A DNA stretch of 4,346 bases from a virus. Taxonomy: Duplodnaviria > Heunggongvirae > Uroviricota > Caudoviricetes. Below, piece by piece: positions 428 to 4,346 of the stretch. Both the position numbers and the translations under genes were made by a program. The stretch lies in the IMG/VR virus record IMGVR_UViG_2681813320_000022; one strand, written 5' to 3'. The notes under the pieces are model-generated. The model was given only the letters and a program-made list of their open reading frames with translations, did no database searches and was not told the origin of the DNA. Numbering within the stretch: position 1 is the stretch's first letter; each line of letters starts with the position of its first letter.

Positions 428-2461
428 TTAAGAATCAGCCTGACTCGGGATCAGTTTTTGCCAGATAACTGAAACGTATTTTGCCTGGTAACGGGCGTCA
501 TCAAGTGCATTATGGCGCTCACCTTCGAATGGAATAGCCGTTCTGGCATCGAAGTCTATGGCTTTCCCCAGCTCAACGATTGTGCGTACATCGCGATCGT
601 TGTAGTAACGCCACGGGCAGGGGATCCCCTGCCGTTCGTATGAACGGCGCAAAATCGTGTTGTCGAAGTTGGCTCCATTTCCCCAAACCTGAACAAAAAA
701 TTCACCGGAGTTTTCGTCGATAAATTCTCGCAATTGTAACAGTGCATCATCTAACGGGATTTCATCGGTCATAATGGCAGATTGCGCTTCGCGTGATTGC
801 TTAAGCCACCATTTAATGGTGTCCCGATCAATGACTCCGCCAGCAGTTTCCAGATCGATAGTCTTACTAAATTCCGGTCCCATATCTCCGGTTTGCGGAT
901 CGAAAAATATTGCACCTATTGAGATGATCGGGGCATCAGGATTTTTTCCCATGGTTTCAAGGTCGATCATTAGATGGTCACACGTCCTGCTGGTGGATGT
1001 GATTTCGTGATGACTGTTCACCTTAATTGGGTGATCTGCCGTCTCGCCAGTTTCATTATCGCTATTGTGATGCTGATTGCCGCCAGTGTTCTCCTTGTGT
1101 GGATGTTCAGCGCCTTCCATTTCCTCCGGATCATCTTCCTGAACTTCAACCTGATACTCTTCATCGAATGTTTCTTGGTATGTTGCGTCGCCCATCACCG
1201 CGCCACAATCAGGGCAGTTGCCGCCGCCGGTCTGACCGCAGGCGGTGCAGACTTTTTCCACTTCCTGTTGCGCTACTGGTTCAGGCTGTTTCGTTTCTGG
1301 CTCGTTTTGTAACGCATTTGGACTGTTTTGTTCCGCTTTTTGGTAGTTCCGTTCCGATTCATGCTGGTTCTGGTTCACAGAATCGCGGGTCTGGAGCCCC
1401 TTAACCCATTTCGGATCATTCGGGTCACTAATCCCTTCAACAAATTCACCACGTGATGCAGCAAGCAACTTATCGGCGTCAGGCTGGCTGATATTGGCTG
1501 CCTGCATAATTTTGTTTACTTCGTCAGCGGTAACTTTTATCGGCTCTGGTTGTTCTGAATCTTCAGCGGTATCTACATTTTGCGGTAAGCCCGTGTATGT
1601 GCCATTTTTTCGGGCAAAATATTCTTCTTTTGTGATTTCAGTGGCGCCAGCAGCCAGTGCCTTATCCAGACCAGAGAGTTTGTTTGCGCGACCGTATTTT
1701 TCTCCGTCCTTATCTGCGAAGAGGAAATAGAACGGCCCCTCACGCTCTACAGATGGTTCAGCTTCCGGCGCGGTTTCATTTTTTGGGATATCAGATACCT
1801 CAGTTTCCACTGCATCAGTTTGTGTTTCTGATGACTGGAGAACATCAACAGTGCCCAGGTCTGTTTCTTCATTCTCAAACACGCCCTTTGTCGTCAGGTA
1901 TTCGCAGATATATTTGTTCAGTGCTACGGGATCTTTGTGAATGTCGATCGGACGCTCACGGACAAGGCCAAAAATAGTTTGGCGGTCGTAGCGAAGGGCA
2001 TCAGGCTGTTTGCGCATTGATGCCGAGATACGCTTCCAGTCTTCGCGGTCGTTGTCGATAACTTCTTTTTTTGCCCAGCGATGGATGCTGCCGTCAATGT
2101 TTCCGGCATCCACATCACTAGGCCAGAGAGCGTAGGCCAGTTCGTCATCCAGTGTTTTCCATGTCTGCTTGTATTCGCGATGAATGGCAGCAATGACCGG
2201 GCTGATTTTTCCTGTTGAATTTTCAGTGTACTGTTGATTGGCTCTGGCGCGGGCGAGATCAACAACAGACGTGTATTTTCCGGTTTCCTTGCGTTCACCT
2301 TCGCGACGTTTTTTCCAGATGCGCATCTCTGCCTGAATTTCGGGCCATTTAGCACCAGGAATACATTTATGCTTAACCCACCCAATGGCGTGCAACTTAA
2401 GCTCCGGATACGGGTTATTCCCCTCTGAACAGGCGCGTAAGGACTGGCAAAACGCCCGCAA
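428..2461 (-). CDS. Prophage exonuclease: C-terminal DnaQ-like DEDDh 3'-5' exonuclease domain, central CxxC-x7-CxxC zinc ribbon, acidic/His-rich linker, N-terminal domain of unknown function
   Basis: Uninterrupted 677-codon frame ending in TAA at 430..428. All DEDDh motifs are present in order: Exo I MIDLET (D500/E502, nt 956..964), Exo II VWGNGANFD (D600, nt 662..664), Exo III HNALDD (H650 nt 512..514, D655 nt 497..499). Zinc ribbon CTACGQTGGGNCPDCG at nt 1205..1249. The annotated start at 2461 is TTG; the real start may be internal (TTG at 2395 with GGAG SD, or ATG at 2326), so the 5' end is uncertain. Confidence 0.8.
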   Translation of the reverse strand: MRAFCQSLRACSEGNNPYPELKLHAIGWVKHKCIPGAKWPEIQAEMRIWKKRREGERKETGKYTSVVDLARARANQQYTENSTGKISPVIAAIHREYKQTWKTLDDELAYALWPSDVDAGNIDGSIHRWAKKEVIDNDREDWKRISASMRKQPDALRYDRQTIFGLVRERPIDIHKDPVALNKYICEYLTTKGVFENEETDLGTVDVLQSSETQTDAVETEVSDIPKNETAPEAEPSVEREGPFYFLFADKDGEKYGRANKLSGLDKALAAGATEITKEEYFARKNGTYTGLPQNVDTAEDSEQPEPIKVTADEVNKIMQAANISQPDADKLLAASRGEFVEGISDPNDPKWVKGLQTRDSVNQNQHESERNYQKAEQNSPNALQNEPETKQPEPVAQQEVEKVCTACGQTGGGNCPDCGAVMGDATYQETFDEEYQVEVQEDDPEEMEGAEHPHKENTGGNQHHNSDNETGETADHPIKVNSHHEITSTSRTCDHLMIDLETMGKNPDAPIISIGAIFFDPQTGDMGPEFSKTIDLETAGGVIDRDTIKWWLKQSREAQSAIMTDEIPLDDALLQLREFIDENSGEFFVQVWGNGANFDNTILRRSYERQGIPCPWRYYNDRDVRTIVELGKAIDFDARTAIPFEGERHNALDDARYQAKYVSVIWQKLIPSQADS

Positions 2462-2480
2462 AAAACTCTCGAGGGCAAAG

Positions 2481-2651
2481 GTGAAGAAACCTGCTGTGGT
2501 TGATCCGGACCTTATCTGGTCATCACCTGACGGAGAAATACGTCGCTACGACAGTCGCCTAAACATAATCTGTCGCGAGTGCCGGAAGAGCGAAGTTATG
2601 CAGCGCATACTGGCTTTCTATCAGGGTAATTTTCAGGACGTGGCGCAGTGA
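2481..2651 (+). CDS. Small hypothetical protein (57 aa from GTG; frame is open back to ATG 2385, which would give 88 aa)
   Basis: GTG at 2481 is preceded by GAGGG (2471..2475) with a 5-nt spacer. The TGA stop (2649..2651) overlaps the GTG start of the next ORF (GTGA at 2648..2651), a translational-coupling arrangement. The ATG at 2385 lacks an SD and would overlap the 5' end of the exo frame on the opposite strand. Confidence 0.4.
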   Translation: MKKPAVVDPDLIWSSPDGEIRRYDSRLNIICRECRKSEVMQRILAFYQGNFQDVAQ

Positions 2652-3004
2652 GTGCACCGGCAACCATTCTTGATATGTGCTGTGGCAGCCGCATGTTCTG
2701 GTTCGATAAGTCTGACGAACGGGCGATATTCAGCGATATCAGAAAAGAAGGATACACATTACGCAATGGGAGACGCTTGATTATCAGCCCTGACATTATC
2801 GCAGATTTTCGTGCATTATCATTTGCAGACGCATCTTTTTCGATGGTTGTATTAGACCCTCCGCATCTTGAGAGTGTTGGTGATAACGCCTGGATGGGAA
2901 AGAAATATGGACGGCTGAATAAAGATGCCTGGCGTGATGATTCGCGACAGAGATTTAAAGAAGCCTTTCGGGTGTTGAGGCCGCACGGCGTTCTGATTTT
3001 TTAA
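2648..3004 (+). CDS. SAM-dependent DNA methyltransferase-like protein (motif I then motif IV, gamma-like order), short and probably truncated or interrupted
   Basis: 118-codon ORF with motif I-like ILDMCCGS (nt about 2669..2692), catalytic motif IV DPPH (nt 2855..2866) about 60 aa later, and a RVLRPHGVLIF strand typical of the Rossmann methyltransferase fold. It stops at TAA 3002..3004, after which the same frame is open for 29 more codons to TAA 3092..3094. No C-terminal target-recognition region is present. Confidence 0.55.
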   Translation: MSAPATILDMCCGSRMFWFDKSDERAIFSDIRKEGYTLRNGRRLIISPDIIADFRALSFADASFSMVVLDPPHLESVGDNAWMGKKYGRLNKDAWRDDSRQRFKEAFRVLRPHGVLIF

Positions 3005-3237
3005 TGGAATGAAACGCAAATACCGGTAAGCCAGATTCTGGCACTGACAGACAGAAAACCTGTTATCTGTCAACGAACAGGGAAAAAACGATAAAACCCA
3101 CTGGATTATTTTTATGAAAGAGGCATCCAGTGAGTAGATTCGTAAGGCTACAGATACGTATATCTGAATAATTAAATTCAGTTCTGTAAATAAAATTTAA
3201 TCCTTAACCGGATGGATTTCTGCACCCTCAGAACATC

Positions 3238-3266
3238 AGGAGGCCGCCCGAAAGGGCGGTAGTGAA
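3238..3266 (+). promoter_or_regulatory. Structured ribosome-binding site: AGGAGG, then a 6-bp GC stem with GAAA tetraloop, then 7 nt to the ATG
   Basis: AGGAGG at 3238..3243; stem CCGCCC (3244..3249) / GGGCGG (3254..3259) with GAAA loop (3250..3253); ATG at 3267. Linear SD-to-ATG spacing is 23 nt; with the hairpin folded it is about 7 nt. Confidence 0.45.
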
Positions 3267-3377
3267 ATGCGAAAGTTCAAAATTATTATTGAAACGGGAA
3301 TAGCTGGTGGAGATTTTGAGGATGTATTCGAAGTGGACGATGACGCAACACCTGAGGAAATTCATGACGGAGCATAA
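3267..3377 (+). CDS. Small acidic protein, 36 aa (MRKFKIIIETGIAGGDFEDVFEVDDDATPEEIHDGA)
   Basis: ATG start served by the structured RBS above; TAA at 3375..3377. Eleven of 36 residues are Asp/Glu. The frame stays open for 23 further codons after the TAA, up to TGA 3447..3449. Confidence 0.4.
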   Translation: MRKFKIIIETGIAGGDFEDVFEVDDDATPEEIHDGA

Positions 3378-3441
3378 GAAATTTTCTTTAACTACTGCAA
3401 TTACTCATACCACGAAATAAAAGACGATGAGGAAGAACAAA

Positions 3442-3618
3442 GTGGCTGATTTTTGTTCAGCTAAATATAACATCAGTTTTGAAGAGCGGGATGAACTATT
3501 AATGGACTATGGTGAGTTACGCGGTGGAAGTGCTGCTGATGTCGAATCCTAGCGTGATGACTATGAAGCGGGAAAAACTCCGGTCGAAGCATATTGTGAT
3601 GAGTGGGGCGATGAATGA
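3442..3618 (+). pseudogene. Small acidic ORF with an in-frame TAG at 3550..3552: 36 codons from GTG 3442 (41 from ATG 3427), then 22 open codons to a TGA that overlaps the next start
   Basis: GTG 3442 is preceded by GAGGAAG with a 6-nt spacer. After the TAG the frame has no stop and no internal start for 22 codons and ends in an ATGA overlap with the ATG at 3615. This is either a nonsense-interrupted gene or a 36-41 aa gene followed by a chance open frame. Confidence 0.3.
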
Positions 3619-3902
3619 GCGAGATTAATTATCAGGAAGGGCATGAAACGGCGGGGCAAGCAAAACCAGTGGCATGGCGATATCGCTACGTGAAAAAAGG
3701 CGTTACGGACTTTCAGGGGAAGTAGTGGTCTGGTGACTGGAAATATGTACCGAAAAAAGAGGATTGTAACGACAGGCCGAACTATCAAATTCAGGCCTTA
3801 TTCACTGCCTCACCAGTCCCAGTTACATCAGAAGAACTGGTTAAAGCTGTGCACTTTTATGAACAACTAAAACGCGAAAATCCACCAACATCCGGCAACT
3901 AG
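3615..3902 (+). pseudogene. Hypothetical protein gene with an in-frame amber at 3723..3725 (36 codons, TAG, then 58 open codons to TAG 3900..3902)
   Basis: ATG 3615 overlaps the upstream TGA (ATGA). The 58 codons after the TAG have no in-frame ATG, GTG or TTG. They read as ordinary mixed protein (WSGDWKYVPKKEDCNDRPNYQIQALF...), whereas the alternative frame ORF at 3745..3870 is Lys/Arg-rich as expected for an out-of-frame read. Confidence 0.4.
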
Positions 3903-4145
3903 ATTAATGGATTAACTATGTCGGTTAAACGACCAGCCAACTGAAAAAGCGGAAACCTGATTACAGGTTGCCAGATAAGGCAATGAGCTACCTGGCGCGG
4001 AACGGACTGATAAGTATGGGGAATGTTTTACGATGAACCTTTAGACTAAAGAGTTTGTAACGCTATGTAAGTGATTTTTTCTGGTTTAGATATTTATATG
4101 TCCGGCCAAATTGAGGTGTGTTTAAATGTAATTGCACATTGATTG

Positions 4146-4152
4146 TAGGAGG
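4146..4152 (+). promoter_or_regulatory. Strong Shine-Dalgarno (TAGGAGG) for the ORF starting at 4157
   Basis: TAGGAGG at 4146..4152, 4-nt spacer, ATG at 4157..4159. Confidence 0.5.
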
Positions 4153-4156
4153 AATA

Positions 4157-4252
4157 ATGAAAAACGCATTGCAGTTTTTGTTTGTTGCGTTCTGGTTGTT
4201 CGCATCATGTATGCCCATCATCTTCACAGCGGTAATGACTCCAACTTATTGA
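4157..4252 (+). pseudogene. 5' fragment of a gene encoding a protein with a hydrophobic N-terminus (MKNALQFLFVAFWLFASCMPIIFTA), disrupted by IS1 insertion
   Basis: Strong SD plus ATG. The first 24-25 codons (4157..4230) are host or prophage sequence; from 4231 the frame continues into the IS1 terminal inverted repeat and stops at TGA 4250..4252 inside IS1, so the native 3' portion is displaced. Confidence 0.45.
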
Positions 4253-4346
4253 TAGTGTTTTATGTTCAGATAATGCCCGATGACTTTGTCATGCAGCTCC
4301 ACCGATTTTGAGAACGACAGCGACTTCCGTCCCAGCCGTGCCAGGT
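4231..4346 (-). mobile_element. IS1 insertion sequence, right-end inverted repeat plus 3' part of insB (partial; continues beyond the window)
   Basis: 4231..4253 GGTAATGACTCCAACTTATTGAT is the IS1 terminal inverted repeat. The following 93 nt match, from memory of the well-known IS1 sequence, the reverse complement of the IS1 right end (...CTGCATGACAAAGTCATCGGGCATTATCTGAACATAAAACACTATCAATAAGTTGGAGTCATTACC). Confidence 0.9.
4246..4346 (-). CDS. insB: IS1 transposase InsB, C-terminal end (partial; 5' part lies outside the window)
   Basis: The minus-strand reading ends ...[29 protein letters not shown] with its TAA stop at 4248..4246 inside the terminal inverted repeat, as in canonical IS1. Confidence 0.8.

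Follow-up and report, generated by a model that had tools for sequence, protein, structure and literature searches.

An in-frame TAA in a DUF7167-family gene of a defective Escherichia coli prophage: a probable nonsense pseudogene

Cryptic prophages at the Qin and Rac sites of Escherichia coli are known to decay by point mutation, deletion and the insertion of insertion sequence (IS) elements. In-frame stops in bacterial genes have been argued to be widespread, over-represented in genes of mobile elements and often not pseudogenizing, and many of them are taken to be read through because the ratio of non-synonymous to synonymous rates (dN/dS, or omega) stays below 1 (Belinky et al. 2021, PMC7918605). 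The gene described here invites comparison with both. It occupies positions 3267-3449 on the plus strand of IMG/VR virus record IMGVR_UViG_2681813320_000022 (Caudoviricetes), a stretch of 4,346 nucleotides that we call the window. An acidic open reading frame (ORF) of 36 codons is terminated there by TAA, and the frame then remains open as far as the start of the next gene. Based on comparison with related phages and prophages, we interpret the locus as a single 60-codon gene of the DUF7167 family of lambdoid phages, now a nonsense pseudogene in a decaying, defective E. coli prophage, and we give this reading a probability of about 0.93.

How does the locus compare with the systems closest to it? 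The element shares with the Qin and Rac remnants an integrase and an excisionase next to rspB, an internal deletion, IS1, IS150 and ISCro1 insertions, and nonsense and frameshift lesions in adjacent genes. There is no difference of principle: the element is a Qin-site variant, and its fuller form, 'phage PhiR42_1' of strain ECOR13, already has the same stops. The cases of in-frame stops argued to be read through resemble the window gene in that a single stop interrupts a mobile-element gene, is shared by close genomes and is followed by an open frame, whereas the window gene differs in an omega near 1 rather than clearly below it, in having UAA as the stop and in having neighbours with indels (PMC7918605). 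Homologues without the stop are common and occur, among other places, in the induced phages vB_EcoS-689R5 and vB_EcoS-640R1. The nearest relatives of the gene itself are intact DUF7167 genes such as those for the E. coli prophage proteins WP_001224672.1, WP_001224945.1 and WP_001224662.1. Such genes are likewise 183 nucleotides long, with 88-93% nucleotide identity to the window gene, and have in common with it an upstream cassette of Shine-Dalgarno (SD) sequence and hairpin, a place after replication/LygF (and methyltransferase) genes and an overlapping junction with the next gene. The window gene departs from them by TAA in place of AAA at codon 37, by E35G, E54D and N59S and, in one sub-lineage, by D30E.

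The interrupted gene and its unbroken relatives

A coordinate check of the window bore out the layout described in the original prediction. ATG 3267 opens the 36-residue ORF (MRKFKIIIETGIAGGDFEDVFEVDDDATPEEIHDGA; 3267-3377), which is ended by TAA 3375-3377; the same frame continues for 23 codons (EIFFNYCNYSYHEIKDDEEEQSG) and is closed by TGA 3447-3449, which overlaps GTG 3442 within bases 3442-3449 (GTGGCTGA). An open stretch of 23 codons is by itself not beyond chance, its probability from local base composition being about 0.21, and stop-to-stop intervals of at least 23 codons make up 31% of all intervals in the six frames of the window. The stretch is non-random because the read-through product matches a whole protein family, and the argument is thus one of homology, not of statistics. 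With the stop written as X, the 60 residues match the whole profile of the Pfam family DUF7167 (PF23768), positions 1-60 of 60, with a score of 50 bits where the cutoff is 24.4 (E = 3e-13), and they match phrog_1997 over positions 1-57 of 57 (E = 2.4e-28). DUF7167 proteins are acidic and about 55-60 residues long, and the uninterrupted ORF of about 55-60 codons that marks a functional member is absent here, TAA standing at codon 37. By descent the window gene is a DUF7167 member, but it appears to be a pseudogene.

This status is already known from annotation. The Prokaryotic Genome Annotation Pipeline (PGAP) places on exactly 3267-3449 a 'DUF7167 family protein' that is a pseudogene with 'internal stop', and does so in every opened RefSeq copy with the stretch intact, among them NZ_CP025903, NZ_CP144928, NZ_CP010178, NZ_CP122676 and NZ_CM169999. 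The features CXV43_RS25985 (NZ_CP025903) and V5099_RS10695 (NZ_CP144928) agree with the window gene in sequence and coordinates without any difference, and are the same object. A literature search on DUF7167 returned no paper that mentions the family.

The ancestral state was read from homologues. Homologues without the stop occur in 340 IMG/VR stretches, of which the best 80 were fetched, and an ungapped alignment was built from 83 loci with 52 distinct sequences of the DUF7167 gene (gene 1) and the gene that follows it (gene 2). Among these 52, 47 have a gene 1 of 183 nucleotides with no internal stop and with AAA (Lys) at codon 37. They come from E. coli prophages, induced phages and IMG/VR contigs, and they keep the gene order and overlaps of the window. 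The 183-nucleotide frame is collinear across all 52 distinct sequences, and Lys37 is AAA in every copy that lacks the window's stop. Since unbroken copies carry AAA at codon 37, the nonsense codon (3375-3377, plus strand) derives from Lys37 through an A-to-T transversion at 3375. Gene 1 normally ends in the junction ATGGCTGA, where the next gene starts; one copy is without that TGA. The N59S substitution of the window coincides with a change from ATG to GTG in gene 2. More distant relatives, at 35-55% identity (103 HMMER matches), are about 55-60 residues long and align end to end, and a stop at codon 37 is missing from 56 distant relatives as well as from every other gene-1 sequence examined.

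The suspicion that the frame beyond the stop is real coding sequence is partly borne out: that frame is conserved across genomes, but as the last 23 residues of an uninterrupted 60-residue gene. The remnant (3378-3449, plus strand) comprises the former codons 38-60 and the original TGA, and aligns to the conserved C-terminal part of the family. Comparative alignment and codon-substitution analysis, two of the checks suggested at the outset, bear on this: copies without the stop have the sense codon AAA (Lys) there, and the mean pairwise ratio of non-synonymous to synonymous polymorphism (pN/pS) in unbroken copies is 0.06 over codons 1-36 and 0.18 over codons 38-58. Both halves of the gene are under purifying selection in unbroken copies. 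The cross-genome conservation is that of ordinary coding sequence which normally has no stop at this place.

What would the truncation remove? An AlphaFold model of an intact homologue, made from a 57-sequence alignment, is confident, with a mean predicted local distance difference test score (pLDDT) of 87. It has two strands (residues 2-8 and 17-23), followed by a helix (29-43) and a C-terminal segment. The residual 36-residue ORF would cover the two N-terminal beta strands and half of the helix. In the alignment of distant relatives the conserved segment past position 37 reads A-[KR]-[DE]-x-x-F-N...[WY]-[SG]-[WYF], and a stop at 37 cuts the sole predicted helix and removes this conserved aromatic C-terminal part. 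The fragment is therefore unlikely to fold like its parent. A Foldseek search of the DUF7167 model against the PDB gave no significant match (best E = 0.56).

Distribution of the TAA allele and constraint in its lineage

TAA at codon 37 occurs on the derived Gly35 background in 44 IMG/VR contigs, and in IMG/VR neither a sense codon 37 on the Gly35 background nor TAA on the ancestral Glu35 background was found. Among 5,426 complete E. coli genomes, copies at least 99% identical account for 483 records, or about 9%; the next full-length matches fall to 92.8% identity, so that a gap separates about 99% from 92.8%. TAA 3375 is kept in 51 of 51 aligned copies of the window lineage. On this evidence the stop arose once, is monophyletic and is confined to a single lineage of at least 99% identity.

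The substitutions that accompany the stop give some indication of its relative age. E35G, E54D and N59S lie on the branch that leads to the lineage in gene 1, D30E lies in the window's own sub-lineage, and the window's base at these sites is present in no unbroken copy. About half of the 51 copies retain the ancestral Asp30 (GAT), whereas the window has Glu30 (GAG). Because copies with TAA still carry Asp30, at least one amino-acid change (D30E) followed the stop. Counted strictly, codons 1-58 of gene 1 have three derived non-synonymous changes; to these are added N59S, in the stretch shared with gene 2, and the nonsense change itself. No synonymous change is uniquely derived. For the part after the stop codon, the branch has two non-synonymous and no uniquely derived synonymous changes.

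Constraint is relaxed in the TAA lineage. Within it, gene 1 shows four non-synonymous polymorphisms (K3M, G11E, D26N and E30D) and no synonymous one among the 51 copies; all four fall in codons 1-36, and G11E lies inside the conserved ETG motif. When the four broken genes of the block are pooled (gene 1, gene 2, gene 3 downstream and a methyltransferase gene upstream), the counts are 18 non-synonymous to 8 synonymous and omega is about 0.63. Neutral evolution is compatible with this value (P = 0.91), and the omega of 0.07-0.18 seen in unbroken copies is rejected (P = 8e-8 to 2e-3). These counts come from a masked alignment, in which three loci with breakpoints were masked and apparent variants at 3699-3700, an artefact of a one-nucleotide indel, were excluded. 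The case for lost constraint rests mainly on the four genes taken together and on the codons of gene 1 that precede the stop, the numbers for gene 1 alone being small.

Proposed explanation and its alternatives

Based on these observations, we propose that an A-to-T transversion at 3375 turned Lys37 AAA into TAA, so that translation would break off midway through the only predicted helix, with 36 residues made, and leave a product that is most likely non-functional. Probably no full-length protein is made and the fragment is inert. In this reading the lesion is young and the stretch short, and only for that reason do the 23 codons beyond the stop remain open. The open frame closes at the TGA with which the gene once ended, and that TGA overlaps the start of the next gene in what was originally ATGGCTGA, a typical coupled phage junction. 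The accessory gene block is decaying as a whole through independent lesions of different ages, and the degraded context of the gene comprises adjacent pseudogenes, an internal deletion and an IS1 insertion. Several observations weigh against this proposal. The allele is common and stable, with its 483 records and its TAA in all 51 sampled copies. The SD sequence, the hairpin and the ATG are intact, so that any transcription of the region could still yield the 36-residue peptide. No change at all has occurred in the 23 post-stop codons among the 51 copies, and substitutions are so few that this segment, taken alone, would accommodate weak constraint. Moreover, a contrast in the style of McDonald and Kreitman is marginal: 11 non-synonymous to 4 synonymous changes on the window branch against 40 to 48 in unbroken copies (P = 0.055).

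One way to account for a frequent allele whose post-stop frame is open and unchanged in every sampled copy is leaky or programmed readthrough, in which the TAA is tolerated or serves as a throttle and a little full-length DUF7167 protein is still made. We rate this as highly improbable because dN/dS in the carriers does not stay low: the substitutions of the lineage look neutral, both in gene 1 (4 to 0) and over the block. In addition, the stop is not kept in any diverged homologue, and readthrough cannot mend the frameshifts, as two neighbouring genes would need. In the window gene a G follows the stop, UAA. Both E. coli release factors recognise UAA, which is the least leaky of the stops. 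A tRNA scan of the window found no tRNA and so no suppressor tRNA gene, an Rfam search of both strands with E up to 1 gave no match, and the 79 nucleotides from the stop onward fold no better than shuffled sequences (z = -0.06). Recoding by selenocysteine or pyrrolysine is rejected, the codon being TAA, neither the UGA of the former nor the UAG of the latter. The implied device common to four genes, a stop followed by an open frame, is not supported either, since the lesions differ in mutation and age, two of the four genes have indels and the substitutions look neutral; the four stops are independent events of different kinds and ages. If readthrough were nevertheless true, peptides from the post-stop segment EIFFNYCNYSYHEIK would belong to the product, and the locus would lend a further example to the debated view that genes of bacterial mobile elements are often read through at in-frame stops.

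The 36-residue acidic fragment might instead have become functional in its own right in this lineage. Its start codon and ribosome-binding region are intact, on its own it scores 29.9 bits, above the Pfam cutoff of 24.4, and gene callers predict it as a protein (P0056, P0064 and XSB42582.1). Set against this are the cut inside the single predicted helix, the loss of the conserved F-N...[WY]-[SG]-[WYF] segment, polymorphisms that are non-synonymous in four cases out of four and include Gly11 to Glu in the ETG motif, the destruction of the ORF by ISCro1 in one genome, and the deletion from the window copy of the upstream immunity and replication region with its promoters; we consider this reading very improbable. 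A variant of the pseudogene reading holds that inactivation was selected, nonsense alleles of the methyltransferase, gene 1 and gene 2 being favoured because their products are costly or toxic to the lysogen, as a form of domestication. Four adjacent broken genes, at least three separate changes of gene 2 Trp37 to TAG, each on a different background, and the independent inactivation of gene 1 in other prophages would fit it. However, genes 1 and 2 contain 2 nonsense changes among 17 derived substitutions, as random mutation predicts (1.0 expected; P of 2 or more = 0.26), and an excess of nonsense changes is therefore rejected as a sign of selection. Trp codons lie one step from a stop, the window's TAG stands in a former CCTGG (Dcm) context, and genes 1 and 2 are free of internal stops in many phages that are active or were induced. 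Selected inactivation is unlikely, though more probable than the other alternatives. The general claim that the TAA allele is not inert, whether through rare readthrough, a role of the fragment or selected silencing of the four-gene block, seems to us very doubtful. A stop created by sequencing or assembly error has no place among these possibilities, the identical sequence being shared by 44 IMG/VR contigs and by complete genomes that number in the hundreds and are independent of one another.

What are the implications of a nonsense pseudogene at this locus? The 36-residue 'ORF' should not be counted as a small protein, as is done in some deposited records (XSB42582.1, clusters P0056 and P0064), and a stop followed by an open frame in four neighbouring genes should not be mistaken for recoding. 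The locus shows clearly how a defective lambdoid prophage decays in stages: the ancestral codon is identified, the stop is older than later damage and the lost constraint can be measured. Beyond correct annotation, little follows from it.

Neighbouring genes and the decaying prophage

The gene is preceded by an SD sequence, AGGAGG (3238-3243), and a hairpin, CCGCCC-GAAA-GGGCGG (3244-3259), which together form a plus-strand cassette at 3238-3259. AGGAGG ends 23 nucleotides before ATG 3267, and the 16-nucleotide hairpin leaves 7 nucleotides between the two. The hairpin has a predicted stability of about -15 to -17 kcal/mol, with a GC stem of 6-7 base pairs and a GNRA loop. In an alignment of 22 distinct upstream sequences 91.6% of cells preserve the pairing, the variants including one double change from G-C to A-U and a loop change from GAAA to GGCA, again GNRA; covariation is not significant, as 53-96 of 500 shuffles reach the observed values. 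In split initiation regions an SD sequence too far from the start is brought to 5-11 nucleotides by an intervening hairpin (PMC3014915). The window arrangement resembles those of T4 genes 38 and 25 and has the spacing by which such regions are defined (PMC3014915); by this analogy, a split ribosome-binding site may lie upstream of the DUF7167 gene. The same 40-nucleotide cassette recurs at 95-97% identity in O157:H7 prophages, where it lies under or beside annotated DUF4014 genes; in locus L006 it is found at 2037-2105, just upstream of the DUF4014 start.

The three broken neighbours had been described as showing the same pattern as gene 1, a single in-frame stop and then an open frame up to the next gene boundary. 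This is true of gene 2 and fails for the other two. Gene 2 (phrog_519; 3442-3618, plus strand; 58 codons) is a pseudogene that has GTG for ATG as its start and TAG for TGG (Trp37) at 3550-3552, past which the open frame reaches the gene's genuine end, TGA 3616-3618. Where the TAG is missing, the gene measures 177 nucleotides and has its ATG start inside ATGGCTGA. The change from TGG to TAG at Trp37 has at least three origins on different backgrounds. One is in the window lineage and another in the induced phage vB_EcoM-606R7; the third is in an IMG/VR contig that differs by one base from a copy with TGG. The window reads TCC-TAG, and with TGG would read CCTGG, a Dcm site, as do copies with GCC-TGG; the other two origins occurred in GCATGG, which contains no Dcm site. 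The Dcm site CCTGG is a hotspot for the deamination of 5-methylcytosine, which gives C-to-T changes.

Upstream of gene 1, the gene for an S-adenosylmethionine (SAM)-dependent DNA methyltransferase (2648-3130, plus strand; phrog_954, E = 6e-72) is truncated by a change of Lys119 AAA to TAA at 3002-3004. Comparison with intact 156-residue homologues reveals an extra G in the run 3080-3082 that shifts the frame off the true C-terminus, and the frame past the stop closes at TAA 3092-3094, before the true end is reached and at no gene boundary. PGAP calls it either a 118-residue protein or 'frameshifted; internal stop'. Lys119 of the methyltransferase and Lys37 of DUF7167 both changed from AAA to TAA by the same A-to-T transversion; in the methyltransferase it falls where a run of T meets a run of A (TTTTTAAATGG to TTTTTTAATGG). 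Gene 3 (phrog_660; 3615-4036, plus strand), a pseudogene annotated by PGAP as 'frameshifted; internal stop', has TAG at 3723-3725, a 90-nucleotide deletion near 3887, frameshifts and further stops. After its TAG the next stop is TAG 3900-3902, within the region that is damaged relative to intact 171-residue homologues, and the TAG falls on a variable codon that is Met, Leu or Pro in intact copies. The TAG and changes in the length of an upstream A-run are common to phages and prophages whose genes 1 and 2 are free of internal stops (L011, L074, L083 and L090), including the induced phage vB_EcoS-640R1. It is therefore an older lesion that has spread by mosaic recombination.

Positions 2380-4060 of the window are 100% identical to many E. 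coli chromosomes, where the host locus is a prophage remnant adjoining rspB (the Qin site). The gene order is integrase, excisionase, the 3'-5' exonuclease and DUF977/LygF genes, each truncated at its 5' end, the methyltransferase gene, the DUF7167 pseudogene, a further pseudogene and IS elements. The exonuclease-domain gene (428-2419, minus strand; ORF list and PGAP) is a 5'-truncated pseudogene, and of the DUF977/LygF gene the 3' part is left (2400-2651, plus strand; PGAP), the match to the complete LygF of PhiR42_1 beginning at window position 2402; PGAP labels both 'incomplete; missing N-terminus'. They are joined by an internal prophage deletion at about 2401 (junction about 2400-2420). 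Phage PhiR42_1, the fuller version, still has the entire immunity and replication region that this deletion took out. The stops pre-date this deletion, because PhiR42_1 and other copies with a complete LygF already carry them. A promoter and terminator scan of 2400-4230 found promoter-like sites at the level expected from shuffled sequence and no terminator-like site of evident relevance.

DUF7167 has been lost independently elsewhere. In NZ_CP145657 (locus L096) ISCro1 is inserted at the equivalent of about 3312, and in the Rac prophage of strain 442/2 (locus L009) the ATG has become ATA and Cys44 TGC has become TGA. Frameshifted forms of DUF7167 also stand in databases as 'proteins' (P0052, P0063 and P0072).

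Similarity to related loci ends at 4230, and the remaining positions, 4231-4346, are the end of an IS1 copy inserted downstream (terminus GGTAATGACTCCAACTTATTGATAG...), with an IS1A transposase annotated in NZ_CP144928. Bases 1-80 of the window are unmatched in most otherwise identical genomes. A 4.3-kb piece that ends in a repeated element looks like a contig from a short-read assembly. Finally, an ATG at 4157, behind GGAGG, opens a small and very hydrophobic ORF (MKNALQFLFVAFWLFASCMPIIFTA...; 4157-4230) that is cut by IS1 at 4231. It is unannotated in the opened records, is kept at 96-99% nucleotide identity in related loci and could encode a small membrane peptide.

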